From Microthyrium microscopicum (lineage: Eukaryota): a DNA stretch of 64,000 nt. The DNA lies in NCBI GenBank assembly GCA_010405405.1, contig MU004230.1, positions 3,320,627 through 3,384,626 of the forward strand. The letters run 5' to 3'. Within the stretch, counting starts at the first letter, position 1. The number at the start of each line of letters is the position of its first letter. The translations under genes were made by a program, and so were the position numbers. The notes under the pieces were generated by a model, which worked only from the letters and a program-made list of their open reading frames with translations, made no database searches and was not told the origin of the DNA. This document shows, in pieces, positions 3,001-56,429 of this stretch.

Positions 3001-5930
3001 AACTTGCTAGTATTTAGTTTAGATAGTATTTAAATAATATACTAGTTTTTAACTAACTTTCCCCTATATTATAAAATATAAGCTCCTTTAATATATAGAA
3101 TGACTTAATTACTATATCTTAGACTAGAGTATAACTACTATATAAGCATAATAGGTTATATAGAACTATAGCCTTAGGAGAGTATTATTAATAAAATAAG
3201 TAAAGGAAGAATAAGATTAGACTTAAAAGGTATACTAGAATTACTTTATTATAACTAGTAAGCCTATCTATAAGATAAAATCTCTAAATAAGAAAGTAAT
3301 TAGTTATTATTAATAAGCCTACTATAGATAGTAGTCTATAATAGGCTATAACTAATAAAGGGTAGTAATATTATTTATATTCTATATATAGTGTCTCTAA
3401 ATAGTAAGTAGTTATAGTATTTAGTATAACTAAAATACTAATTAATTAATAGTTAAAAACTACTTATATTGCTATGAATTAACCTAGCGCGATGTAATAT
3501 ATTAATATAGAACGTATTAACGTTAAAGACGTTAAGACTTTTTTTTAAAAGAAAAAAATTAATATAAAAAATACCTTACTATTTTAATCTTCTCTAGAAA
3601 GCGTATTAGAGAAGGGTAACTAATAAAGTATAATAAGATATCTTTAATAATAAATACTAAAGCATAAATAGTTATAAAGATTATTATAATATTATTGCTT
3701 TAAAAGGGTCCTAATATTAATTAAGATCTACTAAGATGCCTTTGTAGCAATTTTACTAAGTATTAGTATAAATATACTACTTAATAAGCTTTATTATAGA
3801 AAGCTCTACTTACCTAAGTAATACGTAGTATTAAATAATACTACTTAGTAATAAAAAGGCTTTATAGCTATCCTAGCTAATTAATACCTATATATCTAGA
3901 AAAGTAGACTAGGTTATAGAGATAGGTTAGACTAGTAATCTCTAATCTCTACTAGTTTTAGCCGCCTTAAAGTTAAGTAATTATTAAATAGTACTTTAAA
4001 AAGTAACTATAAGTTATTCTTTTTGTTTTACTAAAATATATATATGTAATAAGTAAAATAATATCTTAATCCCTTATGTAACAAGTAAAATAATATCTTA
4101 ATCTCTTATGTAAGGTATCTCTCTACGAAAGGTAGATACTTTAATATATTCTAATAAGTTATTCGTAGAGCGCGTACTATAAGTAAAATACTAAGTATTT
4201 TACTATAAGGTATCTTACTATACGTATTCTCTTAAGTAGTCCTTAGGGAGGAATAGCATAGTAAGCTTTATAATTAATTTTACGCGCGTAGAAGTATACT
4301 ACACTAGAGAGTATAAGATTAAGAGCAGAAAGAGCCTTTTAGCTAAGAAGGCTTACTCTATAGTAGTAAGATATTATTCCTAAAGTAATACTTACTACTA
4401 GATTATTATAGCAAGACTACGTAGGTATAAAACTACTATATAGTATAAGCTTAATATTATTATAGATTCTACGTAATTTTTAACGTTACGTATTAAAATT
4501 TACTATAATTTTACCCCTTTTTTTCTATAAAAGAGCTAAAATTGCTAAGTTCCTCTACTTATCTAGCTCTTAATATAGCTATAAAGAAACTTAGTAAGAC
4601 TTAAGTGCATATATTACTTACTATATAAACTAGCTTAGCGCTACTTAGATATAATGGCTAGATTAGAGTTATAGTCTTCTTCTTACTTAATACTAAAAAA
4701 TCTTACTTTACTAAACCTTCTTTACTATAATTCTATTACCTAATCGTGTTAGTTATGCTTAATTTAATAAGGAAAGATAAACTTATATATAATTTAGCCT
4801 TATAAGATTATTATATAGTAGCACTAACTATCTTAGCGTTAATCTTATACTATTTTTTTGCTTTTTTTATATTCTTATAGGAATAGTGTTCTATAATAGT
4901 AGGCTAGCCTCTTAGATATTTAAGTATAGATATATTTTATAAAATAATTAGTATTTATAAGGAATACTTACGCCTCTAGCGTTAGTAGTTCTACTAATTA
5001 GTAAGCTAAATAGTATATATAATAGTTTAGTACGCAAGCTAAGGGATATAGGCTTACTAAAACGTAACTTTACCTTATGTAATATAAATAAAGAAGTCTA
5101 AAATACTCTATATTAATGTCTTAAAGCTTACATAATTATATTAAAAGCTAGAAATTACTTTTAGGGATATAAATTAGTAGTAGAGGAGTATTAGAAAACG
5201 TTATAGCTAAAGGAATAGAAGTTTTTAGCAACTTAGACTTACTAAAAGTTAGTAAAGTAGTTATAAGTAAAAAGAACAACGCGCTAGAATAATATTATTT
5301 AGTAAGGGATTACGCCCTCCTTGCTATTAAGATATAACGCTTAACCTAAAAGGATAATATATAAAGGAATAACTTAAGAACTTATAAAAGAAATAATACC
5401 CTAAAAGGGATATTATAGCTAAGGCTTACCTATAAGCTAATTTAGTAAGGAACTACTACTACTAAGCTTTACTAAACTTTACTATAGTTATAAATCTATA
5501 ACTTTGCTTTTATCCTTCTAAGGAAGAAGCCCTATAGTGCTTACCCTAATTAAAACCCTTGCGTAGTATTATTTTATTTATTAAAGCTATTTTAGAGGAG
5601 ATATTATAAATATAGTCTTCTTAAAGAATATTTCCTTACTAAATTTAGTAAGCTTCTCTATAAACTAATATCTTTGCTTATAATATATCTTTATAACTAT
5701 ATTAAAATTTATATATAGCTTACTATACCCTTTTATATAAGCTATAGTATTATATAAGGGTACTGCCTTACTAATAATTAGTAACTTTCTCGCTTTTAAA
5801 GATATTTTATAGTACTACGTAACTAAAAATAAATCTCCTTAAAAATACCTTCTAAAAATAGCCCTTACTAAGGGGAGTCTAGAATAAGTCTCGAAATTAT
5901 TATAAATAGGGGAATGCGTCGCTAAATTAG
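1..5930. mobile_element. AT-rich RIP-degenerated repeat/transposon relic; family not assignable
   Basis: Extreme AT content, TpA everywhere, CpA/TpG almost absent, and stops in all frames. This is the classic repeat-induced point mutation signature. Composition returns to normal at ~5.9 kb. Confidence 0.85.
4043..4113. repeat. 32-bp tandem duplication inside the RIP block
   Basis: TATGTAA(T/C)AAGTAAAATAATATCTTAATC(C/T)CT at 4043 and 4075, then a partial third TATGTAA at 4107. Confidence 0.85.
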
Positions 5931-7132
5931 AATTGTGGTTGAGATTTGGGGGTTGTAGGATTTGGTTTTGGTGTTCTCTGATGTGAACAGGTTGGCCGCT
6001 ATTACGCGTCATAACTTGTTCCCCCACCCCCACACTAAAGGGAGATGGGTGAATAATTTTTGACCCGCCATCACTTTCATGGAATCGTCCACAGACTCAC
6101 AGTCCAAGAAGACTCTATTTCCGGCCAAGATTGCTTGCGATTGCTGGCCGTCGCTGAAGAGCTTGGGCCGAAGCATCGTTTGATGAGCCACTGCCATCAG
6201 CTGCCTCAAGTTCCCGAACCCAGACCCACGTCTGCAACATCTCCTGGCTTTCGCCGGCGTCTGGGGAAGAGGTGGGAGTTTAATCAAGCGTAGATGAAGA
6301 CCTCTAATTATGGACTGCGACTGGCAGGTCCATCCATGTCCAGCCTCATCAACTGTTCGCATCAACAGTCCAGGCAGCGAAAAGCAACCACAAACCATAA
6401 GCTTGAGAAGATGTACCTGAGGCGTAGCGAAGGCCAAACAAGCTCAACTACAACGAAGATTGATCAGTAGATGTCTAATTCGCTGCAGGTCTCTCCATGA
6501 TAGGTACTGGTACTTGTGGCCGTTGCAGCTAAGTCCACGAATGAAGGCATCGGATGCCTCTCCATGCTTCAACGATCCTGTGCCTGACAAGGATGGAGGA
6601 GTGATGGCGCGTCCAAGAAACTTCACAACGCGACCCCCGCAAAAGACCTTTAGTCTGTCAGAATATGAAGACGGTCAAGGGCTTCGCCCTCCGGCCAAGG
6701 CCCAAGGCCCACAAAAGGCTTGCAAGTTTAGTCTGCCCAACGCTGCCTCTGTAATAACAATAACATGGACTTTGGGGAAAAGCATGACGATCCAGGGCCA
6801 TCTTAATTCTCAAGGTCTCCCTAGTCTGAAGAGTAGTCTCTCTTAGGGGTCGGGAAGACTTACTCCACTCGTTTGGTCTTCAGGCTGCGTTTGATGCCAT
6901 TGCTAACACTTGTCACCTGCGCCCCCACACTTTCCTCCCATCTCACGATGTCATCTTTAATATTTAAACTGCTGCTAATCCCCTTCTTTCCAAAGCATCA
7001 TTCATAACATTAGTTTCTTCATTCTACCTTTGTGCCTTGCGTTGTGGTTGTTGCTTTGCTATCCACCCTTTCAGCTTCAGCCCTCTTCAGCCTTGCTCTA
7101 CCAATTGCACACTTTCTAAACAACACTTGATC

Positions 7133-22846: not shown

Positions 22847-25800
22847 TTAACCTCGTCTTCCCTTGCCCAAATTCTCATCCCCATCAGACCGCACTCCCGC
22901 CGATGATCGCGGCGACCTTAATCTAGGAATCTTGCTCGGGCTCACCAAAGCTGGGCTCGGCACCACCGGACTAGCCAATGTCTTATTCCCTTCAGCGTTC
23001 GAATTGCCCGCCGGTATGCCCATGACAGTCTTAATGCCAGGCCGGCTCATCGGCAAATTCAACTTTGGCACTGGGCGACCATACTCATCTACACCAACGC
23101 TCGAGCCCGAGACCGCACGGAATGCTGCCTCACGATATGTCGCACGAGATGTTGCATGGGATGGCTGGCGGGATGGCTGGCGTGATTCCTTGCGGCGCGG
23201 ATATTCTTCCGAGGTCTTAGGGTGCGTGGACGCATGGCTATCGAATGATGGGCGCGAAGAGGCGTTTTCGTCGGCGAACGGATTTTCAGCTTCGAGAGGT
23301 TCGCCGTACACGTTAGAGAACTTCTCGTGAAGACGGGTATGGTCTGAGAAGCGCCGTTCGCGTGTATTTGGCTTTTCTCGGTGTGGAGGCGGGCTGGGTT
23401 CGCGAGGCAGACGAGAGCGGCTACGATAAAGACCGTCGTAGATGAGGTCGCCGCCAGATGACAGAGCCGAGTCGGAAGTCTGTGAGAGGAAATGCTCTGG
23501 CTCTGGACTGGAAGCGCGCATAAGAGGATGTATAAGAGATTCAGGGAGAGCAGGAGTTTCAGGGAAACTGGTATGGCGAGCTTTGAGGAATTCGCGAACT
23601 TGGCCCTGACTCTTCTCGAGTTGGCGGATGCGCATATTAAGTGCGTGGACATTGCGGTTCATGCCTCTGGATTGTTGGATTGCCGAGTCGGAGATGTGGA
23701 TTAGGCGCTCAATATCGCCTGTGAGTTTGTCCACGCTGGTGCGCATGCCGCCGAGGTCGTCGGATAGTCGCTTTTCGACGATGGTGACGGAGCTGTGGAC
23801 GCTTTTGATGTCTTTGGATGATTCTTCGCCTTGGGACTTGACGTCGCTGATGGAACTGCCTAATTCGCTAACATGGCCATCGATGCTGTCTAGTCGGCGA
23901 CGGAGATCACCAAAGTTTTTATTAAGGTGGCTGATGTTCTCATGATGTAGACGAGATAGCTCGCCAATGGTCTTGTCCGCGTCATCGTTGGATGTATCTC
24001 TGGCGGGCACACGTACGTTGACAGCTCCGGCACGCGTTGTGAACTCCCTCTGGAGGATATCTAGAACTCCACCTGAGTGACGGACTGAATTATCGGTATT
24101 TTGGCCAGAGGGACCACGTTGATAAAGCGGAGTCGGCGCAGCAGATGGGAATTGCATGTTGAATGATGCTTCCGACGCCGATGGTATGATCATATCAGGA
24201 AGTTCTCTACTCTTACTGGTACCAAAACTAGAAGAAAGCACCTGTTCCAATTCCCCGCTTCCTTGTAAGGTAGTGCTTTCGCCAGTACCTGGTCCAGTGC
24301 TCGGATTTCCGCTGGAAGTCTGATGAGACTCTGGACTGGGCTCTGGAATGTTCACAGCATAAGCCTCAGACGCCATTGGATGCGAAACGGGATAGCGCGG
24401 ATGGCGGACCAGATACAGATTGCGATCGTTCTATGTTAGCAACGTTAGCATCTTTGCTCATCGCAAATGGCATTGATGGGAATAGATGGACTTACATTGT
24501 GGCTGGGACGAATATCAAACTGCTTGAACTCTGATGCAAGACTGCCGTCAGATGGCGTGTAGAATCCAGGTTGTAAGATCTCAGGACGCGCCTGGATAGC
24601 AGCTGGCTCAATCCACAGATCGTCGTCACTATCAGGATAGATAGAGCTTGCAACAAATCGTCGCGGGGCGTTCGATTTTCGAGTACGGGCTGTAGTCTTT
24701 GGACTAACGTGTTCAGAGCCTTGATGATTCGCCGAGTGCTGATTACGCTCGCTACGACCCCATTGTCTGCGTGCTGGAACAGGAGTGATATCATAGTCAG
24801 AGTCAAACGGCTCAAAGACAGAAGTAAGCGTGGCAGCAGCAGAGTTCTGCAGTTGCGCAGACTGCTCCTTCTTCGCTCGCAACATTTCATGGCGGGGCGA
24901 GTTGACGTTGACAGTTCCTTCTTCAATGATTCCACACATCGAACTATAACTTCCCTGGTGAACAATATTGACATTATTGCGCGATTCATATTCGCCATAC
25001 TGCATGTTCGATGAAGTGCGTAAATAGTCCGAGTTGCGATCAAATTGCTGTGCTGGAGGTGGCATTGCAGCTGCTGGGCGGAGATCTGATGTAGTTCGCG
25101 GCCTACGCGGTATCTTCAATATCTCCTTCTCTGGCGGCGTCGGCGGCTTGTCATTGTTCATGTATTTGAGACTCTTGGTGCGAACAAGTCCTGGTGGACC
25201 ACTGGATGCAAAATACTCTTGCGCCTTGACAGAAGTAGTCAATGCTGATGGCTTGGTGTAGCCTTGCGAAGTGGCGGGTCGTCGAATTTCAGCAGCGGCT
25301 TGAATTGCCTCAACGGGCGGCTCGGTTGATTGAGATCGCATTGCTTCCTTGTACTCCTCACGCATGGCTTGGAGTTGTCGGCGACTAGGCGTCAATTTGC
25401 GGTGCCAACTTCCACTACGACGATCTCTCTTCTTGAGCATGTACGAATCATCGTCATCTGGAACATGAATATGCTGTGCGCCTAGAACGCGCTCTGCTTT
25501 GCTTGTGGAGCGGGAATTCTCATCCAAGCCCAGCATTTTCATGGCTTTTGGTGGTGTATCCTGTGGAATGTCGGTATCCTCCTTGCCCACCTTGTTCTTT
25601 GATCTTTTTGGAGTCATGTCAAGAGAATCGGAAGAATTATCGATAGACAGGTCGTCGTCAAACTGTGTTGTTGGACTTTCTGGAATAGGCGCACTTTTGG
25701 TACTTGTAAACTTGGATGGAAAAGTCTCTTTCTTTGGCGAACTTGGTGGTGCGAAAAATCCAAAAGCTTTGGTAGGAGATCGAGGCGATATCAGTGAGCG

Positions 25801-26474
25801 CATGCCAAAGAAGTTCTTGAGTTTAGATTTCTCAGGCTGAACATTGGTCTCTGGTTTGAGATTTGTATTAAGTACCAGAGGCTGAGGTAACTTGGCCCGC
25901 ACTTTTTTAGCTGGTGCTGAAGGCATTTGACGTGGAGCATTGTTCGAATCAGGCTCTGAATGAGGAATGCAATGAAGTGAAGTTGTTGATGATAATTGAA
26001 TGGGGTGGTGGTGCTATTGACAGATATTAGTGATTGATGTTCTGAATAGGGACAATAGGTGGATAGTGAGCTTTGTAGCATGTGAAAGGGTAAACATACC
26101 ATCAAGCCTGTAACTCCAAGCTTACGACCAATGCCGGTGAGATTAGTTGCTGAGTGCTGCTTTTCTTGTTCATCAATAATTCGATTTTGATAGAAGGCAT
26201 TGTAGACAGGAGGTGCAGCATTGCCCAGTGCCGCATGCCGTACATTTGGCAAGGCGGTAACTTCAAAATCGTCTTGATCAATATTGTAGCTTTCGAGAGT
26301 TGCATTTGATGCGTAAGCATTGGCCGAGTAGGGTTTACTCGCCGCTAGATTTTCTGACATCTGGTTATCGTTGTGGTGTCTACGTTCTGATGCTTGATGA
26401 AACTGGCGAGTGGGCGACACTGAACGACGTGGAGAAGCTGAGCGCCGAAACGGATTGCCCATAGTGGCAGGCAT
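22847..26474 (-). CDS. Uncharacterised ~1158-aa Ser/Pro-rich disordered protein with a coiled-coil segment
   Basis: Exons 26474-26100, 26013-24496 and 24430-22847 join in frame through canonical GT-AG introns with CTAAY branch sites. Heptad-like region LRRRLDSIDGHVSELGSSISDV...MRIRQLE. Confidence 0.75.
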
Positions 26475-29829: not shown

Positions 29830-31810
29830 TTATTGCGTATTCGCGTCCGTTTGTGTCGATTCCTCGCTGCGTTTGTCGCTGCCGATAACAACGCCCTTAA
29901 CTTTCTGGTCCATCTGGTCCAGTTTGTAATTCTTCATGACAAGGCTGAGAGGAATGAGCGGGATGCACACACAAACTGCAATTGTGAGCAGAATAGTCAT
30001 CGTCTCCTGGTAGGCACGAGCTATTGCATCACGTTCTGGTGTACCCATGGCCCATCCAGTGGAGGCCAAGGTCACATTGCCATAGATCGCGGCCGTTTGG
30101 TTTTGAATGCTTTCTGGTGCGTACTGCTTCAGCTTCAATGGAATGAAGTGAGACCAGACTGCTCCAGAGATTGCCGCGCCTACTGCTCCGCCGATCTCGA
30201 GAATGGTCAAAAATGCTGCTGTGGCTGCAGCGACTTGCTGATGGCTCACGGCGGCTTGCACTCCTAGCTGTGCTGGCACATTCAGCATACCTCCGCCAAT
30301 GCCAACGGCAATCTGACAACCAACTAGGGTGGCCGTGGATACACCAGTCGACCGATAACGAATCAGCAAGCCCATCCCCAAGAGGTAGATACAAGATCCT
30401 GCTGTAATGTAGTACTTGTAGTGCGCCGTGTACTTGATACAGAGAGCGATGAGAATAGAGGTAACTGTCGAGGTGAAAGTGAAGACTTGAGTAATATGGC
30501 CAGCAGCCTTGACTGACTTGCCCTGAACGATCAACAAGTAGGATGAAAAATAGGGGTAGATGGAAAGGTAAAACGCCACTATACCGAGTTAGTCAATAAA
30601 CTCAAGATTCATGGGAAGCTTACTGAAATAGAAAAAGGCAATTGCAACACCAGCAATAACGGTACGATTGTTGAACAGGTTTGGCGGGAAAAAGGCATGT
30701 GGAGCTAATTTGGAACTTCTCTCCCAGAATGGAAAAGCGACAAAGCAGACGCCTCCCATGACGAGCATTGCAATAATGCTTCCGTTTCTATAGCCATCCT
30801 TGGCTGAATTCGCAAGGGTCAAAGGGATAAGAATCAGAGCAATTGCCGCAGCTAGAAGTAGCAGCCCGAAGATGTCCAGGTCAAACCAGAGCTCCTTGGC
30901 GATTGCAAATGGAGCTTTGCCGGCGAAAGGATTAGGCGGTAGCTTTCCTTGTCGTTTAAGTTTTATTTGGAGCCTCAAAAGAACCACTGCAAGAGGTATG
31001 AATGCGACAGGAAGCACGATGGCCCAAATGCCATACCCCCATCTCCAGGTTGAACGGGTCAGTATACTCTGGGCAATATCTGGACCTACCCAGACAGTCC
31101 AAAGAAAAGGGACGTCGAAGAGGGAGGAGTACAGAGCTCGATTAAGTAGATCTGAAGTGTCTGCTACAAAGATCTGCTGGAGTATTTGTAGGCCTTGGGA
31201 GCCTGCGGAATAGAAAATCTGGGCAGCGGCATAGGTACGAACGTTATTTGACGCGGCTTGCTGGATATATCCAACGGTGAAGAGGAATATGGCAATCGAA
31301 AAAGCTTCGAATCGGCCAAAGACATCAGCGATCTTTGCCATGGGGGGCTTGATGACCGCTAGAGATGGTCAATATTTTTCATGGCGGAGCTTCATGATCA
31401 CTTACCATTGACAGTACCTTGCACAACGGTAACAGTCGCAAGTAGGGAGTGTGCCAGAAATGCACTTGTAGCAAATGGTGCCAGACTTATGGTAGTGTTT
31501 CCCTCTAACGATGTGGCATTTGCAATGGTCAACAGCCTGCAGGAGGTTAGTCAAATATCTAGCATGAAGCGGCAAATACTTGCGATGCATAGGCTATAAT
31601 CAAACCCCATTTGGTCCAGTTGCTGCTGATAGCTTCGATTTTCTTGACACCTTCCTGAGCTTCAGAGTTGGTGGAGCTGGAGCCAGGGTCCCCAGGGTCA
31701 CTGTCGGCGACGAGAGATCTGTGGTCATTTACAGACTTGTGGTCGTTGCCGGTATACACATTCTGCTCGCCACCAAGCTCTGGATCGCCGGTTGGGTTTG
31801 GTAGCTTCAT
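29830..31810 (-). CDS. Siderophore-iron transporter (SIT/ARN/MirB-like MFS)
   Basis: Exons 31810-31584, 31536-31406, 31358-30624 and 30578-29830; the first intron is GC-AG. Motifs QEGVKKIEA, KPPMAKIADVFGRFEAF, FVADTSDLLNRA, WRWGYG and GTPERDAI. Confidence 0.92.
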
Positions 31811-32276: not shown

Positions 32277-33039
32277 GGGTTTTCAAGCCACCAATTTTAG
32301 CGTATTCTTCTCATTTGTACCCTGCAATGCCTAGAGTTCTCCACGACTCACCATCTTCTCTTCGCTGACAGCCCGGAAGTCTTTTCCACATAGCCTAAAT
32401 GAAAGACCTCGAATCATTACTTCCGACTTTACAGAAGATCTTGTCAGCAGGTTGATTTGAATGCTTGGGAATAGATTACTCTATACATCAGGCTAGCACT
32501 TAGCGGGGTTGTTGCGACCATTCAAGACGCCATGCAGAGCCAATAAATGCAACTTTCTACCGGAAAGTGTGCTCTCGGAACTCGAATGATGATGCGATCG
32601 ATGGATTTGACAAGGATTGGTACGACGTTGCATATGCTTTCTCTCAACCATCCTACGTCTCGAGTACCAGTCAATCGACAGAGGACATTCGGGTAGCGCA
32701 CCTTGTCTGAGTTCGAATTCAACTATTAAGTTGGACATCGAACAGCCATTATCAACTTTTATATGCGAACTTTTTGAGGACGTAGACTCAGACTCCAGGT
32801 CCTTTATCATTCATGTTCAACTTTGAAAGGGTCAGCTTGTGCTTGCTGTGAGTACCTACGCAATACAGTTCTACTCATCAACTGTTCTCTCTCCATATTC
32901 CAACCAACCAATCAAATATCATGATTCAATATGATTCATTTAGTACTACTTCAGCGCACCTGAATTTCTATAAGTCTGCTGTTCTCGACCGCTATGACTT
33001 GTCTCAGTTGAGCCAATTTCACCTGCCGCACTACGCATC

Positions 33040-34428
33040 ATGACCGACTCGAATGATCTCCACGAATTCTATCTGGATGTCCTTGGACAACAGCCATTGA
33101 TGAAAATATATACACAAATCTGCTTTTGTTATGCAGTCCCGGAAAATGACTTACGAGAACAGATCCTCGATACACTGAATGCTGGGCTCCTTAAGTTGTC
33201 AACATCATTTCCCTGGATCGCTGGCCAAGTTATCAGCGATGAGCCGATTTCAGGAGAGACATTTAGTTTCAAAATCGTACCTTTGGAAAAGACTCCTCGT
33301 TTGGTTGTACGATATTTCGACGACGACAACCGAGTACCGAACTATCAGAATCTGAGAGAGGCCAATTACCCTTTCAGGATGCTTGATGAGTCTCTCATCG
33401 CTCCTAGAAACACACTACCAGGTCTCCCAGGAAGTTCCAACGAAGATATAGCACCGGTGTTGCTTCTCCAAGCCAACTTCATCACTGGTGGTTTAATTCT
33501 CACATTCGCTGCTCATCACAGTGCAATGGATATGACAGGTCAAGGGCAGATCATGACTCTCTTATCCAAGGCATGCCATAATGAGCCATTTTCCCCCGAG
33601 GACCTAGCGTCTGGCAACCTAGACCGACGCCATGCTATATCTTTCCTCGAGAATTATACACCAGGTCCAGAGATACAAGACCAAGTTCCATCTCCATCTC
33701 CAAAAACGCCCGCTGAAATCCCCAAGAGCGAAACCACACCAAATGACCCTCCAAAACTCACTTGGGCATACTTCTCCTTTCCAGCAACTTCACTATCCGA
33801 TATCAAAAAGGTAGCCTCCAGCACCATTGCCAGCCCAGCCTTCATATCAACCGACGACGCTCTTACAGCACTGATCTGGCAGTCCGTAACTCGCATACGC
33901 CAACCACGGCTCAAAACAAACGAGACATGCCGCTTTGCGCGCGCAGTCGATGTCCGCTCAGCACTAAACATCTCACCAACTTACACCGGTTTCCTACAAA
34001 ACATGACTTTCCATTCCTATCCCATCCAGAGACTCACCTCCGATCCGCTCGGCGACGTGGCCTTGAACTTCCGCGCTCGGTTGGATCCCAAGGAATTAGC
34101 ATTTCGAACTCGGGCACTGGCGACGTTCTTTAAACAGGCGGATGATAAGAGCATCGCTATCGATTTCACGGCTGGTATGGATCTGTCGAAGGATATCATG
34201 CTTAGCTCGTGGGTAAAGCCTAATTGCTATGAGTTGGATTTTGGCCTGGGCTTGGGAACGCCAGAATCGGTACGGAGACCGCAGTTTACAACGGTGGAGA
34301 GCTTGTTTTATTTGATGCCGAAGAGGCTGGATGGGGAAGTTTCTGCGGCGTTGTGTTTGAGGGAGGAGGATTTGTGGCGGTTGAAGAAGGATGAGGAGTT
34401 TATGAAATACTGTCAGTATGTTGGTTGA
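33040..34428 (+). CDS. BAHD/transferase-family acyltransferase, trichothecene 3-O-acetyltransferase (TRI101/AYT1)-like
   Basis: Intronless 462-aa ORF. LDVLGQQP start, HHSAMDMTGQ (HxxxD), STDDAL and DFGLGLGTPESVRRP (DFGWG-type motif). Confidence 0.9.
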   Translation: MTDSNDLHEFYLDVLGQQPLMKIYTQICFCYAVPENDLREQILDTLNAGLLKLSTSFPWIAGQVISDEPISGETFSFKIVPLEKTPRLVVRYFDDDNRVPNYQNLREANYPFRMLDESLIAPRNTLPGLPGSSNEDIAPVLLLQANFITGGLILTFAAHHSAMDMTGQGQIMTLLSKACHNEPFSPEDLASGNLDRRHAISFLENYTPGPEIQDQVPSPSPKTPAEIPKSETTPNDPPKLTWAYFSFPATSLSDIKKVASSTIASPAFISTDDALTALIWQSVTRIRQPRLKTNETCRFARAVDVRSALNISPTYTGFLQNMTFHSYPIQRLTSDPLGDVALNFRARLDPKELAFRTRALATFFKQADDKSIAIDFTAGMDLSKDIMLSSWVKPNCYELDFGLGLGTPESVRRPQFTTVESLFYLMPKRLDGEVSAALCLREEDLWRLKKDEEFMKYCQYVG

Positions 34429-42982: not shown

Positions 42983-45235
42983 CTATCGTTTGGAGTATTT
43001 CTGAGCGGTGACGACTCCAGCGATGAAGATCATCACCCCTGGTAGCCCATAAAGAAGGCCGATCATGAGGAGGAAAGCGATTATAAACAAGGTATGCGCT
43101 CCTATGTTGTGTTGAGGCTCCAAAATGGTCTGTTGGCCTTCAACAACACCAGGTAACTCATCATCTAGTGAGAGCTCCTCTTCGTCGTGAGGTTGATTTC
43201 GTTCGACTGAACGATTGCGAGCATATACAGCGTCAACAAATTCAGGTCCAATGAGAATTTCGCACAGGACTTTTGTCGTCATTTGGTCCCAACTCTCTTG
43301 CTCATCAACGGCTGACTCAATGGCTGCTTCTAATTGATGTGCAACGACTTGGCCGAGCTCAATGCTCTCGGAGGACTCAAGTTCATTGATTTCATCAACA
43401 TCAGCATTGAGGATTGGAATCGCCTCAGATTCGACAAGCGGCTCCATCAAAGTTGTTCCATCCGCAGAGTCTGAAGTGCCCATGGGAACTACCGAAATAG
43501 GTTCATCAGAGTCCTGGCTGGCCATACTTGGCTGAGTAGGGTCGCCTAAGGGGACAGAAGACGACTCCTTTTCGTCTTCGGTCACTGGGCTGACTTCAGT
43601 AGTTGCTTTCGCTCCTTCGAGACCCGACACTCTATCAACCAGATGATCTCCGTAGATAAGAGCTGGAGAAGGGGTCTGCAAGAGTGGCTTCACAAGGGGC
43701 GACTCCTCTTCAATACCAAAAGCTGTGGATGTATCTGCTGCTGCCGTAGTATCTTCTGCAACAGTATATTTTGGTAACAATGAATCTTCAGTCTTCTCAA
43801 TGTTATCCACATCCTCAAAAGTAGAGACAACAGGTTCGGCTTCTGTGTCAATTTCGTGTCCGTGAGCCGAATCGGTCTCCACGTCAGTTTCTTCGTTAGG
43901 CATGACTGTAACTTTGTGGCCTAGAAGTGATTCATCATCTTTCGACGATTGCGCGGGGGTGTATAAAGATGATAACGGCGAGGTTGAGGGACTTGACTCA
44001 AAGGAGTCGACGACTGCCTCCTTCTTGGGAGGAGTTGACCAAGATGCTTCAGGGGTGTCCTGAACAAGCTCCTCTTTGTACAGCGCATCTAAACCATCGA
44101 TTGAGAAGTCATCCCCAGTATCAATGGCACTATATTCTTTTGTAACTGTCTCCTCGGCGGTTTCCGTCTCGTCAGTTCCAGAAAGGGGCTGTGGAACAGC
44201 CATTGGCTCCAAGAGGAGCGGTGGGTCGGGAAGCGAGTCGCCAACAAGGCTGTATGAGCCATAAACGGGCGCAACGGAATAAGAAGCGCTTGTTTCCTCT
44301 TCTACGTTGGAACAGTCGCTATAGTTCTCTGTTGGTTGAGTTGCGACCTGTTCTGAATATGCGAGAGTACGAGGGGACTCGACTGCTTCGTTTGATGGCT
44401 CTGAAGAGTCGGATAGAATCTCCTGAGGCTCTGGGTTACCAGCTACGTGGATCTTATCGCCATTGGAATCGGTAATGGAGACTTCTAATTTCTGCTCTCG
44501 CACCATTTGCCGCTTAGCCTTACGAGACTTGCTTTTGTCCTTGCGCATACGAGAGAACAAGGCTTGAGCCTCAGGGGCCTCAGCTTGTACTTGAACACGC
44601 GCAACGTTGGGTTTCGCTTGCTTTGCATCCTTGATGGCAGCTTTTGGGGCCTTAGTGGGCTCTGATTTAACAGCTTGTGGGGTGACAGACACTGGCTTCG
44701 CCTTAGATTCCTTCGACTTCGGTTCATTTGGGAGCTTTGGCTTTTGCGACTTCTTTGAAGAACCTAACTTCTCAAGAACTACATGCGGCTCACGGTGTTC
44801 TTGTCGGAGCTCAGCGACGTCTTTGCGCATAGGTATGACATCCTTCATAAGCTTCAAAGACGAGGTGCGAGTTTTGGATAATATCTTTGGCAATTCGTGG
44901 AAAGGCGAGCGCTGTTCTGAGTGGCGAACAGACGACTTATGTTGGCTAGTGACAGCAGCAGTGGGCTTGGCCTGCTGGGGAAGCTCTTTTTTGCCCAATG
45001 CAGCAGCATAGGATTGTTCTTTCCGATAAAAGGAGGGCTCTTCAGCGGGTGCTTTTGCAAAATCGCAGTCCATGGACTGATTAACTTCAAGTGATGGTTC
45101 TGGAGTATGACTCGGAATCATCATTTGAGGAAGATTTGGTTTTTGTTGCCCTCGGCCATTGCCACGTTTTGCAGGTTTGATGTAGTCAACCAAAGAACAA
45201 GTTGTCGATGGCGCGGTGAAATGAGTTGATTGCAT
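42983..45235 (-). CDS. Uncharacterised ~750-aa disordered protein, basic then acidic, with a C-terminal hydrophobic anchor
   Basis: Long intronless ORF with first ATG at 45235. C-terminus LFIIAFLLMIGLLYGLPGVMIFIAGVVTAQKYSKR. Confidence 0.75.
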   Translation of the reverse strand: MQSTHFTAPSTTCSLVDYIKPAKRGNGRGQQKPNLPQMMIPSHTPEPSLEVNQSMDCDFAKAPAEEPSFYRKEQSYAAALGKKELPQQAKPTAAVTSQHKSSVRHSEQRSPFHELPKILSKTRTSSLKLMKDVIPMRKDVAELRQEHREPHVVLEKLGSSKKSQKPKLPNEPKSKESKAKPVSVTPQAVKSEPTKAPKAAIKDAKQAKPNVARVQVQAEAPEAQALFSRMRKDKSKSRKAKRQMVREQKLEVSITDSNGDKIHVAGNPEPQEILSDSSEPSNEAVESPRTLAYSEQVATQPTENYSDCSNVEEETSASYSVAPVYGSYSLVGDSLPDPPLLLEPMAVPQPLSGTDETETAEETVTKEYSAIDTGDDFSIDGLDALYKEELVQDTPEASWSTPPKKEAVVDSFESSPSTSPLSSLYTPAQSSKDDESLLGHKVTVMPNEETDVETDSAHGHEIDTEAEPVVSTFEDVDNIEKTEDSLLPKYTVAEDTTAAADTSTAFGIEEESPLVKPLLQTPSPALIYGDHLVDRVSGLEGAKATTEVSPVTEDEKESSSVPLGDPTQPSMASQDSDEPISVVPMGTSDSADGTTLMEPLVESEAIPILNADVDEINELESSESIELGQVVAHQLEAAIESAVDEQESWDQMTTKVLCEILIGPEFVDAVYARNRSVERNQPHDEEELSLDDELPGVVEGQQTILEPQHNIGAHTLFIIAFLLMIGLLYGLPGVMIFIAGVVTAQKYSKR

Positions 45236-50058: not shown

Positions 50059-52518
50059 TCACTTCCGTAGCAGATACGTTCCGGCAGTGAAGAAACCTAG
50101 CAGAATGACACCACCACCACCGCCTGCCATATAAGCCAATGCAGTTGCGGCTGCAGCCCCGAGGTATGGGTGATTTGAGGCTGCAGGAACCTCATTCGGA
50201 CTATCCGACTCATTGGACTCATCAAAAAGAGCTTTATTTTGCTCTTCAAGTCCATTGGTGTGCAGCACGGCGGGTGTCTCGTTGGCCGGGCGTGGGTTTT
50301 GCGCTGGCACAGTAATATTCTGGCGGGAAGTGGTAGCTGCAGAGACTTCTGGGAAGCATATTGTGCAGTTTATTCCACAATACAGATCATGGTCTGGGTT
50401 CACATCAGCGACTTCAGCTTGTCCATTACCAGTTTGAGCGCGAGGAACCTGTGCAGCTCCTGTCGCTGCGTTTGAAGAAGGTCGAGTTACTGGCAGCATT
50501 TGGGCCATAGCCTCCCCACCTCCAACTGCCGCGGGTTGTTTAGAAGTAATACCGTCCTTGGTCGGAGCTTTATATTCCGACAGGGTGCCTGTAGTAGGTA
50601 ATGAAGCTGGGACGGGGCCTGACAAAGTAGGCTCGATGGCTTGAATCACGGTATTATCATCATGAGTAAATTTATCCGGCATCTCCAGCTGACGATCTTG
50701 GTCGCTTTCCGCCTCGGTTTGCGGATTCATCTTCTCTTCTTCTTGTGGATATGGGGCCTTTTGATCGTTACCACTCAAAGTATTGACGTCTGCTTGCGCA
50801 ATGGTCATGTCTGGGCTGACTGCTTCAACAATGTCGACAGCCGCGTCCGGTTGAACGTTCATACCAACAAATGAAGCCGATGGCCGCAGGGTATGGAAAG
50901 TATTTGAGGGTATAGGATATACAGGGCTCGATGGAGTGAAAAGCTTTAGCAATTCTTGAGCCTGCGGAGATATAACAACGGCATTGATAAGTTGGGGAGA
51001 GTCGCTAGTGGGGGTGGCAGTATTGCTCTCCAAGGTAATAATTTCTTCCATAATGTAAGAAGGGAAAGGGTCAATCAAGCAGGGTGGCTCCATAGCGGGA
51101 AGAATCTGGGAGATAGACGATAGCAGCTTTGGCGAGTATTCCAAGGCCTTCTTCTCATCTTGTTCTTCTACAACCATGATATGGTCCGCGTCCTTGCTTG
51201 ATTCGACATCTGCGTTACTTAGACCTTCTGATAGAGTCTCTGGAAAGTAGTAGTTGAAGTTGCTACGGTTCATGCTATGATAAAACTTCTAGTCTTCATA
51301 GCTATGAGCTTTTCCTTCCTGACAGAAGTGACAATCTGGTGAGGGGTTCTCAAACTCAATGATGCATCCAAGCTTTTCATTCACGCCCAAATCATGAGAG
51401 GTATATGGAAATCCACAAGCATGGCATCTAGCTACAGCGCCAGACGAGGAAAATACAACCGCATGGACGGACTTGGAACGTTTCCGAAAGGCCGGTCGCT
51501 TCAACTCGTGGCTGCCATGGCCGAGAGATAGAGTGGTATGTGAGGAGTCCTCGGAGAGCAACGAGCACTCCGAGGGAGTCTCGTCAGTGGTTACCGAGCT
51601 ACTCGATTCTCGAGACTTTCGGCGATTCTCGCGTTGGCGCTCTCGTTTTTTATGTCCACGTTTGAAGCTTTTCTGCTCAGTAGCGATTTCTTGATTTGAA
51701 ATCTGGCTATCCACAGTCGGAGCTGAAGCAGCTGGAACTTCCAAGACCGGCTCTGAATGCGACGCATCTTGCGACGTGGAAAGTTCTAGCAGTGGCTGGG
51801 AAAGGTTACCGCGGCCAGTATTGTCACAATTCGAAGCAAGACCATCATTCTTGTGCTGATCTGACTGGACGGGAGAACCAGTGGCTGAAGGCTTTGAAGA
51901 TTGTGAATCTTGGGGGGCAGCCTTACTAGAAGCTCTATCCAAGCGACCTCGATCAGTTTTGCGTAGCTTCCGAGTAGATCGAGGCTTATGTGCTTCTGAA
52001 GACTCAACATTATCTGACGTGCTGGCAGGTGATGCCCACCGAGAAGATTGCAGGCCATCAGAAGGAGTTGGAGTTGGATCTGCAGCCCATCTAGAAGTTG
52101 CAAGTCCACCCAGCTTAGAGAAGACTTTTGGAGATGACTTAGCAATTGGCGAAGGAGCGGTACCACCGAGCAAATCAGTCTCTGAGAGATCCTCGCGCTG
52201 AGGCTGGGGTATCGCTTTAGGTGGCTGCACTAAGTGCAGTATGCTTGTGCCAGGAGCAAAGCGTGAGTTTGAAGCGCGCGGAGGACGTGAAGCTTCAGCT
52301 TGTTCGTCTTTGAGCGATGGAGCTTTTGCTCCCACTGGCACTCGCAGCAAGTCCATCAAGGCCGGGCAAGGGGCGAAAGAAGAATGTGCAAGTGGCTGAG
52401 AAGGCAGAGCCACGTCGGAATGTGCAACTCGATAGGTATCGACTGCCTCGTCCATTTCAACAGCTCGGCAGCCATTCAAATCCAGAGAGTAGTAGTCGAC
52501 GGTATTTTGAGGAGCCAT
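50059..52518 (-). CDS. Uncharacterised 819-codon disordered, tail-anchored protein interrupted by one in-frame TAG at 51289-51291 (edited/readthrough gene or pseudogene)
   Basis: The ORFs 51289-52518 and 50059-51273 share a frame and are joined by GAC TAG AAG TTT TAT CAT AGC ATG. CxxC pairs are present, and the C-terminus is hydrophobic (YLGAAAATALAYMAGGGGGVILLGFFTAGTYLLRK). Confidence 0.7.
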
Positions 52519-53429
52519 TTTAGAAACACGCGTTGCAAAAGTTGCTCTGAGATATCTAGTTAGCGTGCTGAAAGACAGCCTAGCTCGTGGTAATGGGGTT
52601 CTTACCAGGGTGTAACAGATGGAGCGATATGAAAAGAAGTTGAGCGTAGTTTGTGGAAGATAGACGATGAAGTGCTTTGATAGAGAAAATCCAGACAGAA
52701 GGAGAAGAGTTGTTGTGGTGTGCAAGCAGAGAATATGGAAGATGGAGGGAACTGGGTAGGAAAGAAGTCGAGGAAGATGAAAACAATGAGGAGAGGCTAT
52801 ATACTTTAGGATCCAGTGCCCAGTGACTGGCCATCAACAAGCTTGGAGAACTCGATGACCAGGTTACTGTTCAAAAGTGAAAGTGCTATCTACCTATATA
52901 GGAGGTCGATTTGAGGTGCGAGCGGTCAGTGACAGAACCACGCGCAGAAAAGCGACACCAAAACAATCAACATCATCGCGGCTGGAATGGCGCGTCCAGC
53001 ATCTCCAGCGCAGCGCATTCATTCCTTAGTAAGAGTGACCTCGAGCTATTCGGAAGGGTTTAAGTATGGCATCGCCAGATTTGAGCCAGTATGAAGCGGA
53101 GATGACTTCAAGATTGATATAGCAAGGCCCTTTATGTAGCAATGGAGAGAAGTGCGCCTGGGCCGAGCGATATATTCTTGTACTAGTCATTAGCCACAAA
53201 CCATAATTCGAAAAGGGGTGTAGTTGCGAATAGAATAACATCATGGAGGTCGAACCCTCCATACCTTAGCCTGGATCCATTATCTTACGAATATCACAAG
53301 AGTTATACAGATGTTGTGCCAACTGTGTCATTGCATTATCTAATCTATACAAGTGGCAATAGTCAAATCCAGCAAACAGCTAATCAATATCCAAAACAAA
53401 CATGACCACAACATTCATTCCCAGTCTGA

Positions 53430-56429
53430 TCAAGAGGAGAAGTAATTAGCCACAGCCTTGGGTATATTGCGCGGCGACTTCCACAATGCCACGCCCACAG
53501 CAACTATAAGGGCAGCTCCGCCGACGGCCCAAAGAACATTGCGACGGTCTGGCTCTTGCTTCATATCAGATCGCTCAGTTTTTGAAGCCTCCTTGGGGAA
53601 CGATTTGCGACCGACTGTCTTCTTCACCATATGGTTTTCAGGGGTAGAAAGCTTCGATGAGCTGCTCGTGCTGTCCTTGTCAGATGAGTCACAAGGAAGT
53701 TGATTATCTTCTGGGAAAGCGACCTGGAACAATTTGACCTCTGCTTCCTTCTTGGCAGTAGTGGAGGATGGCTCTTCAGCAAGATCGGTTATCTGCTGCT
53801 TTTGGGGCTTATCGAGCTGTGCCTGTGTATCCGGTTCCATAACAGGCGTCTTGATCGTAACACGGCTTGAAGGCTCAAACTGAGCGATTGTAAGCTTATG
53901 GCTAATATGAAGTTGACCTTGGGCAATATGCTCAAATAACTTGCCTTGATCGTCTGCAAGCTCTGGAGAAACATCGATTGCTTCAAGAGTGGAGGGTATT
54001 TGTGCCGCAGGATCATCTAAGGATGCATCGGTGCTGTTGGGAAGATCTGTGTACAGTTCGATGTTTGACTGCTCTACGAAAGTAGTCGAAAGTAGAGTTT
54101 CGTTGGAATCGGCACCAGGTTCGACAAGAGGTTCTGGTAGTTTTACATCCGAGGATTCGACGGTATTACTCAAAGAGGCGCCATTTTCAACGATTAGCTC
54201 TGGTTCTTGCGAAGCAGAATCGATTGGCTTGTTGGAGACTATCTTGGACTCTACGCTGGGCTCGGGTGCTTCGGTTGACTCAACATCCATTGGCTCATTG
54301 CTATCGTCATAGGCTGTAACAGAGGAATCTGGACCTTCGCTAGATGAAGAACCAAGAGACTCAACATTGCTGCTGAGTGGGGACCCATCGTAAGAGAAGT
54401 TAGCAATCGGAGTTTCAACAACTGGAGCATCAGCCATTGGAGCATCCATCAATGGAGCGTCAACAATCGGAGCATCAACAGCTGGAGTCTCAACAATTGG
54501 AGATTCAACCTTCGAAAATTCAAGATCCGGAGCATCAGCATCTGGCATGGGCTCATCCTCAATGAGTACGACTGGCTCATGGTCCGAATCATCCAGAGAA
54601 ACCTCCAGAGAAACCAAATCTGGCACACAATCGTCTTCGTAGTCGTGCTCAATAGAAGCAACCACGTCCTCCTCTGAGACGCCCATTTCGCCATTATCAT
54701 TGTACTCGGTGTAAGCGGTTTTTTCGGTCAAGGCCTCTGTAGATTCTGCTCCAGTAGTAGCTTCGCCTACAGTCACAGATTCGACGACTTTTTCAGCTGC
54801 CTCCTTTGCGAGTCGAGCTGCTCGCTTCATCTTCCAAGCCTCAATGACGGCCTGCTTCTCGGCCTTTACTCGCTCAAGGCGTTCCTTTTCGAGTGATTCA
54901 AAATCCCACGAAGTTTTCTTGATATAGGCGCGGACATCGGCTTCTAATTCCGCGGCTTTCTGGTCATTTGATGTTTCCTTGACAGCTTGAGACCCTTCGA
55001 CAACTTGAGACACGTGCGCCGCTATCGACGCTTCGACATCTTCAGTCTCTCCAATTACCTCAGGCTCTCCCGAAGCCTGAGGCTTATCAGCAATTTGAGC
55101 CTCTTCAACTGTCATCGGCTCTTCAACAACTTGCTCGGTAGCCGGCGAAGATGGTGCTTCTGGCTCCTTTTGTTTTTCTTTGTCCTGGCGAACTTCATTC
55201 TTTGTCATGTCGTCTTCGACTTCCTTGGTAGCTTTGGAAGCCTGCTTTTGCTGGCGCTTAGTACGCTTTTTTGATGATTTTGAAACGGCTTTCGACCACT
55301 CCTCGGAGACGGATTCAAGCGAAACCTCCTGGGATATCTCATCATTTTGAGCAGGCGACTCAGAGACGGGGAGTGTCGACGAAACCTCTTCGACTGGAGT
55401 GTTAATGGCAATTGGTTGCGCAGAAACTGCCTCATTGTTGACAACAGGGGCTGGATCGACGACACATTTGTCAATCTCAGGGGTGTCAACAGTAGGATTA
55501 TCGGTGTTGGGGGTATCGACAACAGCGTTGATGTCCGAAGACAATTCAGCATCAGCAGATGCAGCCGCCTTAACACCATCGTTCCTTACCAGAGCCTTCT
55601 TTAAAAGATTGTCCTGATATTTGAAAGCCTTCAACGGCTTCGCCCCCCGACAATCATCACAAGTCCAAGCCTTCAAAGGTTCCACAGCAAGCTCCAGCAA
55701 CGTACGTGTTTTCATGCCTGCACAATGCAAGCCTTTATGAAAAGCGCGCTCACACTTCTGGCACTGGACAAAGACCAACTTTCCCCACTGCTGACCGTCA
55801 CAAGCGGCGCAGAGCTCACTGTCCAGATCGGCACGATAGTAGGGGTCGTGCTTTTCTGCCTCTTCCTGATGCTGGCGAACAAGTTTTGATAGGGAATCTG
55901 GCTTTGGCGGCTCATATGAAGCTTCACGGACTTGGGCTTCATATTGGACTCGCATGGCGTCGGGCATGAACGCTGGATTGAGATGAGTGATATTGGAGTA
56001 ACAGGTTTGCTCATGGTGGATTGGTAGAGGCGTTTCTTGAGATTTGATGGCCTTGGGCGAAACTTGTACTTGAGGAGCTTTGTTTGAGCGCCAGGTCAGC
56101 TCGGGGGTGATGGACTTTTGAAGTGATTTTTGAGGAACTTCTTCATCTTCAATGTCGTCTGCCCAATCAATATTGGTTGAGGACAACGAAAGTTTGGCAG
56201 CGGGCTTAGAAGCCTTCGCGGGCTGGGTGTTGATTTTCTTGGTCTTCTTGTTCCGCGCATATGGATTTATTGAAGCGCTATCAGAGGAATGGTTTTCGGC
56301 TGATTGTGATGGGACTGGAGACTCAGCTCGAGTCTCAACAGGAAGGCCTTTGGCGCCGAGAGTGACAGTAGCGGCAGCTTGGGCGCGCTTGGCCTGGCGG
56401 CGAGCACGAGTCTTTTGGTTGGAACCCAT
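53430..56429 (-). CDS. 999-aa acidic disordered protein with a PHD finger and a C-terminal transmembrane helix
   Basis: C4HC3 pattern CAAC...FVQCQKCERAFHKGLHC...WTCDDC. C-terminal RRNVLWAVGGAALIVAVGVALWK. Confidence 0.8.
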   Translation of the reverse strand: MGSNQKTRARRQAKRAQAAATVTLGAKGLPVETRAESPVPSQSAENHSSDSASINPYARNKKTKKINTQPAKASKPAAKLSLSSTNIDWADDIEDEEVPQKSLQKSITPELTWRSNKAPQVQVSPKAIKSQETPLPIHHEQTCYSNITHLNPAFMPDAMRVQYEAQVREASYEPPKPDSLSKLVRQHQEEAEKHDPYYRADLDSELCAACDGQQWGKLVFVQCQKCERAFHKGLHCAGMKTRTLLELAVEPLKAWTCDDCRGAKPLKAFKYQDNLLKKALVRNDGVKAAASADAELSSDINAVVDTPNTDNPTVDTPEIDKCVVDPAPVVNNEAVSAQPIAINTPVEEVSSTLPVSESPAQNDEISQEVSLESVSEEWSKAVSKSSKKRTKRQQKQASKATKEVEDDMTKNEVRQDKEKQKEPEAPSSPATEQVVEEPMTVEEAQIADKPQASGEPEVIGETEDVEASIAAHVSQVVEGSQAVKETSNDQKAAELEADVRAYIKKTSWDFESLEKERLERVKAEKQAVIEAWKMKRAARLAKEAAEKVVESVTVGEATTGAESTEALTEKTAYTEYNDNGEMGVSEEDVVASIEHDYEDDCVPDLVSLEVSLDDSDHEPVVLIEDEPMPDADAPDLEFSKVESPIVETPAVDAPIVDAPLMDAPMADAPVVETPIANFSYDGSPLSSNVESLGSSSSEGPDSSVTAYDDSNEPMDVESTEAPEPSVESKIVSNKPIDSASQEPELIVENGASLSNTVESSDVKLPEPLVEPGADSNETLLSTTFVEQSNIELYTDLPNSTDASLDDPAAQIPSTLEAIDVSPELADDQGKLFEHIAQGQLHISHKLTIAQFEPSSRVTIKTPVMEPDTQAQLDKPQKQQITDLAEEPSSTTAKKEAEVKLFQVAFPEDNQLPCDSSDKDSTSSSSKLSTPENHMVKKTVGRKSFPKEASKTERSDMKQEPDRRNVLWAVGGAALIVAVGVALWKSPRNIPKAVANYFSS

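Follow-up and report, generated by a model that had tools for sequence, protein, structure and literature searches.

A candidate for conditional A-to-I stop correction in a long orphan gene of the Dothideomycete Microthyrium microscopicum

The closest described counterparts of the locus analysed here are the PSC genes of Fusarium graminearum and Neurospora crassa, which are edited by Tad2-Tad3-Ame1 and include PUK1, AMD1, FgRID and FgAMA1; the accessible part of the Fusarium study counts 71 such genes (PMC10776026). The same study reports that disorder is over-represented among the proteins of the Fusarium PSC genes and that the stops of these genes frequently go back to codons other than Trp; it also describes single species of other classes that carry a stop at the corresponding position, their editing status being left undecided (PMC10776026). 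A second system is OLD-ZAO, comprising zao-1 and zao-2 of N. crassa and CHE1 of F. graminearum, and the OLD enzymes display, in the available sections of the source, the same preference for a hairpin and for U at -1 (PMC12754623). The third is that of Pyronema confluens (Pezizomycetes), a precedent for a proposed independent origin of A-to-I editing outside the Sordariomycetes, linked to the duplication of a gene of the machinery (PMC11087585). As far as the accessible parts of two papers go, mRNA editing in fungi was shown in Sordariomycetes and in Pyronema, Aspergillus and Botrytis have yielded none, and fungi with pseudothecia are listed as untested (PMC11156358, PMC7306014). No report of editing in Dothideomycetes, Microthyrium or Venturia was found in the literature searched, outside which subscription papers mostly lie and which includes parts of PMC13199489 and PMC7306014.

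The window, i.e. the whole stretch of 64,000 nucleotides of Microthyrium microscopicum that was analysed (GCA_010405405.1, contig MU004230.1, positions 3,320,627 to 3,384,626), carries on its minus strand a single-exon frame, which runs from an ATG at 52518 through 409 codons to a TAG at 51291-51289, and from there through another 409 codons to a TGA at 50061-50059 (Table 1). The sequence confirms the original prediction that a single TAG splits an otherwise intact 819-codon gene with 409 codons on each side; the minus-strand context GAA GAC TAG AAG TTT TAT CAT AGC ATG AAC is as claimed, and the stop lies just behind the CHAC...CHFC cluster, 11 codons past CHFC. The host, which was said to be of interest if it stood outside the Sordariomycetes, is indeed a Dothideomycete, and those relatives of a neighbouring enzyme that carry a name belong to the Dothideomycetes, Trichodelitschia and Tothia coming first.

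Like the PSC genes, the split gene has one in-frame UAG interrupting a frame that is otherwise intact, with U at -1, purines at +1, +3 and +4, and the A in a hairpin loop, which is here a predicted one; it encodes a disordered hypothetical protein and is represented by two models in the automatic annotation. On every feature that DNA can test it appears to match a PSC gene. It differs in that its host is a Dothideomycete and its editing is deduced from DNA, in that no ortholog was found and the paralog has Asp at the site, and in that the RID-like genes of this genome are uninterrupted in their methylase matches and two TAD3 genes are present. Features in common with OLD-ZAO are a UAG that lies within a hairpin loop and is preceded by U (-1), a region rich in Cys and His, and OTT_1508-like deaminases encoded in the genome. 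Unlike in OLD-ZAO, no OLD-like gene was found on contig C1, no C2H2 fingers follow the stop, no Pfam family is matched, and the protein ends in a hydrophobic tail rather than in a DNA-binding domain. Compared with Pyronema, whose duplicate is Ame1 and whose editing was shown by RNA, it is TAD3 that is duplicated here, and editing is a deduction.

Table 1. Coordinates of the split gene, its elements and its long neighbours in the window.
Feature	Position in window	Strand	Remarks
In-frame TAG (codon 410)	51289..51291	-	candidate editable A at 51290; bases -2 C, -1 U, +1 G, +2 A, +3 A, +4 G
N-terminal half, 409 codons	51292..52518	-	mostly disorder-type composition; basic stretch near residues 283-305
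C-terminal half, 409 codons and TGA	50059..51288	-	in-frame ATGs at 51273 and 51177
Cys/His-rich motif CxxC..H..C..DCHxC..H..ED*KFYHxM (* = stop), residues 364-416	51271..51429	-	common to one paralog only; interrupted by the stop
16-pair RNA hairpin, A of UAG at apex (predicted)	51270..51307	-	RNA folding, -13.3 kcal/mol, z -2.46
Weak in-frame intron candidate GTGAAT...TAG, 96 nt	51289..51384	-	ends at the TAG; judged unlikely
Apolar Gly/Ala-rich C-terminal tail, then Arg-Lys	50068..50166	-	possible but weak tail anchor; KD19 maximum 1.52
Upstream neighbour, 999 aa, single exon	53430..56429	-	PHD-like finger below Pfam cut-off; C-terminal hydrophobic anchor
Downstream long ORF, 750 aa	42983..45235	-	C-terminal hydrophobic anchor

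The TAG is a real genomic stop between two intact coding halves. The check for a sequencing error came out in its favour, the contigs of runs X1 and X4 reading the same letters across the stop: X1 covers the entire stretch in one contig with 0 differences, and X4 covers 50400-52600 at a depth of about 1085, likewise with 0 differences and without any variant letter on record. Both runs may be the source of this DNA, so that they rule out an error and are uninformative on other strains. Runs X5 and X6, each with a small share, are identical where present, the stop lying outside their coverage. None of the runs recorded as RNA covers the stretch, and the single contig guessed to derive from RNA ends before the site, which carries no information on expression. 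With a codon model trained on 102 long ORFs, these two halves among them, the log-likelihood ratio per codon in frame is 0.071 and 0.107 for the halves and 0.081 for the 37 codons past the stop, as compared with -0.113 for the leader; both halves and the 37 post-stop codons display their coding signal in this frame alone.

The public annotation gives the halves as two separate single-exon genes, the first encoding a 409-aa protein (P0006) and the second a 372-aa protein that starts at 51177 (P0249). This would suit a functional split, with a soluble N-half and a C-half made separately, either from a promoter inside the gene or after ribosomes re-initiate at an ATG 18 or 114 bases past the stop. 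In-frame ATGs do follow soon after the stop, a second TAG-split gene described below has an ATG directly behind its TAG, and for Neurospora zao-1 an internal start site that yields a C-terminal form is described (PMC12754623). Several features of the locus nevertheless make such a split improbable: the motif shared with the paralog crosses the stop, the 37 codons that precede the annotated ATG look coding, the two halves leave no room for an intergenic region, and the position of the stop at a hairpin apex would be left unexplained.

The statement that no intron signals remove the stop stands in part. One weak candidate of 96 nt does exist, and its signals are rare in this genome: the donor GTGAAT is found in 0/51 de-novo introns, and CTCAY, the candidate's sole branch-like word, in 1/37. 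Its removal would yield an anchored protein of 787 aa without half of the Cys/His motif, and FgBUD14, where splicing and editing meet at one stop, offers a precedent in the accessible part of the report (PMC11156358). The GT...TAG span is present, as such an intron would demand; its rare donor and branch word, the loss of 32 residues of which 12 are identical to the paralog, and a predicted hairpin that buries the acceptor region make splicing at this site very unlikely.

In RNA folding, the A of the UAG falls in the loop of a hairpin at all eight window sizes from 31 to 201 nt; in the 201-nt context it is unpaired with P 1.0, and the C-G, A-U and G-U pairs are predicted with P 0.96-0.98. When the two inner pairs are opened, a 7-nt loop C-U-A-G-A-A-G results with the A third of seven, which we take to be the register of tRNA A34, and the loop presumably resembles that of tRNA-Ser(AGA); ARAGORN recognised no tRNA among 60 loci of this genome. 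The open and coding-like frame past the stop would also suit ribosomes that read through a leaky UAG, the RNA staying unedited. The stop is nevertheless inside the hairpin rather than upstream of it, and UAG-AAG-UUU mismatches what we take to be the leaky contexts, CAR-YYA and C at +4; readthrough is thus the explanation to which we give least credence. The U at -1 and the purines at +1 and +3 that had been pointed out are present, and altogether five of the six Fusarium-preferred positions are matched (-2 C/U, -1 U, and A/G at +1, +3 and +4), +2 being A, which is slightly depleted, and not G. The three free flanking positions are shared by 481-500 of 4000 random TAG sites. A hairpin loop together with these flanking bases characterises fungal A-to-I sites in the accessible parts of three reports (PMC9600606, PMC11156358, PMC11169179).

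How often such a structure would arise was estimated from null models on 919 kb of this genome (about 2.5%). Among natural TAG triplets within coding frames, 66/1749 reach this energy with the A in the loop, and 1/47 of the terminal TAGs do so. Simulated one-step nonsense codons reach the hairpin in 93, 122 and 173 of 4000 cases at three window sizes, i.e. 2-4%, and simulated nonsense sites inside this gene reach the threshold in 6-8 of 115 cases (5-7%). Adding the A34 register, a criterion that is post hoc for this site, lowers these counts to 9/1749 for natural triplets, 0/47 for terminal TAGs, 7, 11 and 14 of 4000 (0.2-0.4%) for simulated codons and 1/115 inside the gene. The site itself was first picked without regard to structure, and the loop-and-energy result is therefore independent of the discovery. 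When the 18 flanking codons were reshuffled synonymously with the protein held fixed, 7/2000 shuffles reached the energy of the hairpin, so that it is the codon choices that build the stem.

The possibility of a recent pseudogenisation, raised at the outset, has proved to be a strong rival in the form of a plain nonsense mutation: a single step, e.g. from a Glu codon in view of the paralog's Asp, in a dispensable orphan gene of the isolate or species, with a hairpin that pre-existed, arose by chance or by template switching, or raised the mutability of its loop. The left arm of this hairpin is itself a palindrome, which suits an origin by template switching. The Asp of the paralog at this site, the other stop-broken genes within the 919-kb sample, and the simulated frequencies of a comparable hairpin, both genome-wide and in this gene, likewise speak for a recent mutation. 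On the other side, the C-half would have to be young and the stop to date from within about 2-3% neutral divergence, as the C-half stays open with a probability of 0.10 at 2% neutral divergence and of 0.02 at 3% under an assumed indel rate; the synonymous test also argues against it, and RIP is excluded as the source. We consider a recent nonsense mutation quite plausible, at somewhat less than even odds.

A RIP-type origin of the TAG, which had been suggested as well, is unsupported, since the gene is single-copy and has composite RIP indices of -0.9 and -0.6. A RIP-inactivated pseudogene, which would be a repeated sequence with raised TpA/ApT and depleted CpA+TpG, was rejected on these values, as against +1.5 at positions 1-6000 of the window, and on the presence of only one diverged paralog. 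Positions 1-6000 form an AT-rich block (GC 0.22-0.26) that is strongly RIP-marked (composite index 1.5); the genome is thus subject to RIP, and a sexual cycle is implied.

No Pfam family was matched in the split gene. Its sole homolog is a paralog located about 68 kb away (G000:C1:3301080-3303782; L002:460-3162), which is open for 900 codons without interruption; both are long, disorder-rich and end in a hydrophobic segment. The public model of the paralog (935 aa) has its end spliced differently and loses part of the hydrophobic tail. Between gene and paralog, 19 of the 46 motif columns before the stop and 4 of the 6 after it are identical. The paralog codon aligned to the stop is GAT (Asp), two steps from TAG, so that Trp would not restore the aligned residue; a weaker hairpin encloses the aligned codon in the paralog too. 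The conserved Cys and His suggest that the motif may bind metal. An AlphaFold model of the motif was unusable, with a mean pLDDT of 36.9.

Searches for orthologs gave a consistent picture: none of 547 candidates scored in a word search with residues 320-470, a profile search of 1.84 billion representatives returned four matches, namely two proteins of the own genome and two unrelated repeat proteins, metagenome scans for the motif pattern confirmed 0/113 and 0/28 matches, and an Atlas search with the paralog motif gave no usable match. The C-terminal membrane anchor that had been compared with those of both neighbouring long ORFs is there as a hydrophobic tail, weaker than theirs: the best 19-residue Kyte-Doolittle mean is 1.52, as against 2.26 and 2.41 for the neighbours, the paralog falling in the same range of 2.26-2.41. 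No homology to these two neighbours was detectable (phmmer E 0.02 or worse). Regions 42983-45235, 50059-52518 and 53430-56429 form a cluster of three long single-exon orphans with disorder-type composition, basic stretches and hydrophobic C-terminal tails, with no detectable mutual homology; a YTH-domain gene sits between the split gene and the downstream long ORF.

The explanation we favour, with a probability of about 0.5, is that of one 819-codon gene held off by its UAG and conditionally corrected by A-to-I editing. It is partly supported by the A at the tip of the hairpin, the outcome of the synonymous reshuffling, a comparable site in another gene and the presence of two TAD3 copies. The preferred flanking bases, the five OTT_1508-like deaminases and the sexual cycle implied by RIP also speak for it; the Asp of the paralog, the ortholog searches without a match, the uninterrupted methylase matches, the kinase TAGs resolved as splice sites and the ordinary tails of TAG-ended ORFs speak against it. 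A deaminase acting on hairpin loops would edit the A at 51290, so that UAG becomes UIG and would be read as Trp, most likely during fruiting-body formation. The best candidate for the enzyme would be the Tad2-Tad3 complex, perhaps with the second, diverged TAD3, and an OLD-type deaminase would be the alternative. The unedited message would give a truncated, probably inactive product, and the edited one a protein in which the Cys/His motif is complete and which also has the long disordered C-half ending in the hydrophobic tail; the outcome would be an on/off gate on a lineage-specific, probably membrane-tethered protein. The switch between soluble and anchored forms that had been proposed is weakly supported, as the short form loses FYHxM, the last conserved residues of the sole conserved motif, and an on/off gate fits better. 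This on/off behaviour is suggested by the short product lacking the end of the motif and by the truncated forms in Fusarium, which displayed no function in the study (PMC10776026). The message of the short form would carry a 3' UTR of more than 1.2 kb and would be a likely target of decay.

A second TAG-split gene, 139 kb away (G000:C1:3231717-3233771), consists of 318 codons, a TAG (3232671) and 365 codons; it matches no Pfam family, is single copy, and neither of its natural halves, as delimited, is present in the protein collection. Its A (G000:C1:3232672) lies in a predicted hairpin of -14.7 kcal/mol in the same register, with a U-U-A-G-A core, and the core Y-U-A-G-A is common to both genes. 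By the natural-TAG null this hairpin is reached in 6/1749 cases, but 394/2000 synonymous shuffles reach it too, so that it is largely explained by the amino acids and constitutes weaker support.

In the 919 kb there are 71 cases of two neighbouring frames in the same phase, both 100 codons or longer (27 split by TGA, 25 by TAA and 19 by TAG). Besides this gene, nine of them were read in detail; going by the listing, the others were judged to be ordinary gene ends, introns or antisense shadows. The sample also holds stop-broken genes without such hairpins. From their motifs we take these to be a helicase-like gene with two TAGs (G000:C2:1091415 and 1092465), a JmjC-like gene with one TAG (C2:1052013), a coiled-coil repeat gene with TAG-CAA (C2:1097854) and a HET-like gene with TAA (C1:3246089). 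None of the four TAGs of the JmjC-like, helicase-like (two) and repeat genes is in the A34 register, and one of the four is in a loop. The in-frame tails behind TAG-ended ORFs do not exceed in length those behind TAA- or TGA-ended ones (67 vs 167 ORFs, p = 0.36), in a test for which 234 of 560 ORFs passed the coding filter and the split gene itself did not.

The four DNA-methylase genes, RID-like ones included, have no stop within their methylase matches; we take L036 (C3), which is a single open frame of 710 codons, and L038 (C6) to be RID-like methyltransferases, and the others to be DIM-2-like and a larger one. A search for ANAPC4_WD40 (AMA1-like) gave 14 short matches with no stop inside them. 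Of the internal TAGs in 12 kinase loci, the three that could be resolved proved to be 3' splice sites, and an intron accounts for the split pair in the window at 29830-31368 (TAA). Stop editing on the scale of Fusarium is thus not indicated, but about 2.5% of the genome contains two well-framed sites.

The presence of TAD2 and TAD3 is by itself universal, both being needed for tRNA editing. To our knowledge TAD3 is usually single-copy; this genome contains two TAD3-like genes, at G000:C3:2068142-2069698 (L123) and G000:C5:1209622-1210683 (L124), which are 31% identical over the aligned span and both have yeast Tad3 as their top match among solved structures. The C3 copy is diverged, with long insertions that include a basic stretch. 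The search for TAD2-like genes gave a single one (C2:4371106 region, L126), named from motifs and not from a database match.

Three DUF726 genes were found, at G000:C7:56177-57214 (L011), C1:947325-948422 (L013) and C1:951738-952798 (L012, L014); in L013 a Gly replaces the nucleophile Ser. Genes of the Ame1 family number two, as in many Dothideomycetes, the species appearing twice in the ortholog table (PMC11087585 Supplementary Data 6). In Fusarium, Ame1 carries a derived MV in place of the ancestral KN, according to the accessible text, and the Ame1-Tad3 link is reported as a Sordariomycetes innovation (PMC11087585). At the putative MV500-501 site, placed by its residue distance from the catalytic triad with no Fusarium sequence aligned, L011 has Leu-Val, its closest relatives have Met-Ala, and the other Ame1-family gene has Arg-Thr; in the 117 of 120 homologs that were parsed, the first residue at this putative site is Lys in 89 and Met or Leu in 16, Leu-Val occurs in 2 and Lys-Asn in 0. 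No solved Ame1 structure was found. The OTT_1508-like (OLD-like) deaminases number five (L041-L045) and are distributed over C4, C7, C14 and C15; none adjoins the split gene, and 0/5 are on contig C1. Two of them, L042 and L044, lie within about 3 kb of kinase-domain matches.

More tentatively, and on balance doubtfully, Microthyrium might possess its own, independently evolved A-to-I mRNA editing in the Dothideomycetes, in which a duplicated, diverged TAD3 would let the tRNA deaminase act on mRNA hairpins resembling an anticodon arm and several lineage-specific genes, the split gene included, would be gated by UAG correction. We regard the split gene as a genuine, well-framed candidate for an established mechanism, in a fungal class new to it. 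The locus pins the question to one base (T>C at window position 51290), with a further site at G000:C1:3232672 and the second TAD3 as the candidate for a dedicated subunit. Were stop correction to hold, a further origin of such editing would be likely and public gene models in the group would be wrongly split; otherwise the TAG would simply be a nonsense allele of recent date in an orphan gene.

Elsewhere in the window, a single-exon gene similar to trichothecene 3-O-acetyltransferases (32998-34428) adjoins an intron-split MFS transporter gene (29830-31368). At 22847-26013 on the minus strand, two long coding-like frames of 522 and 527 codons, which lie 14 bases apart and in different frames, are probably one intron-containing gene.
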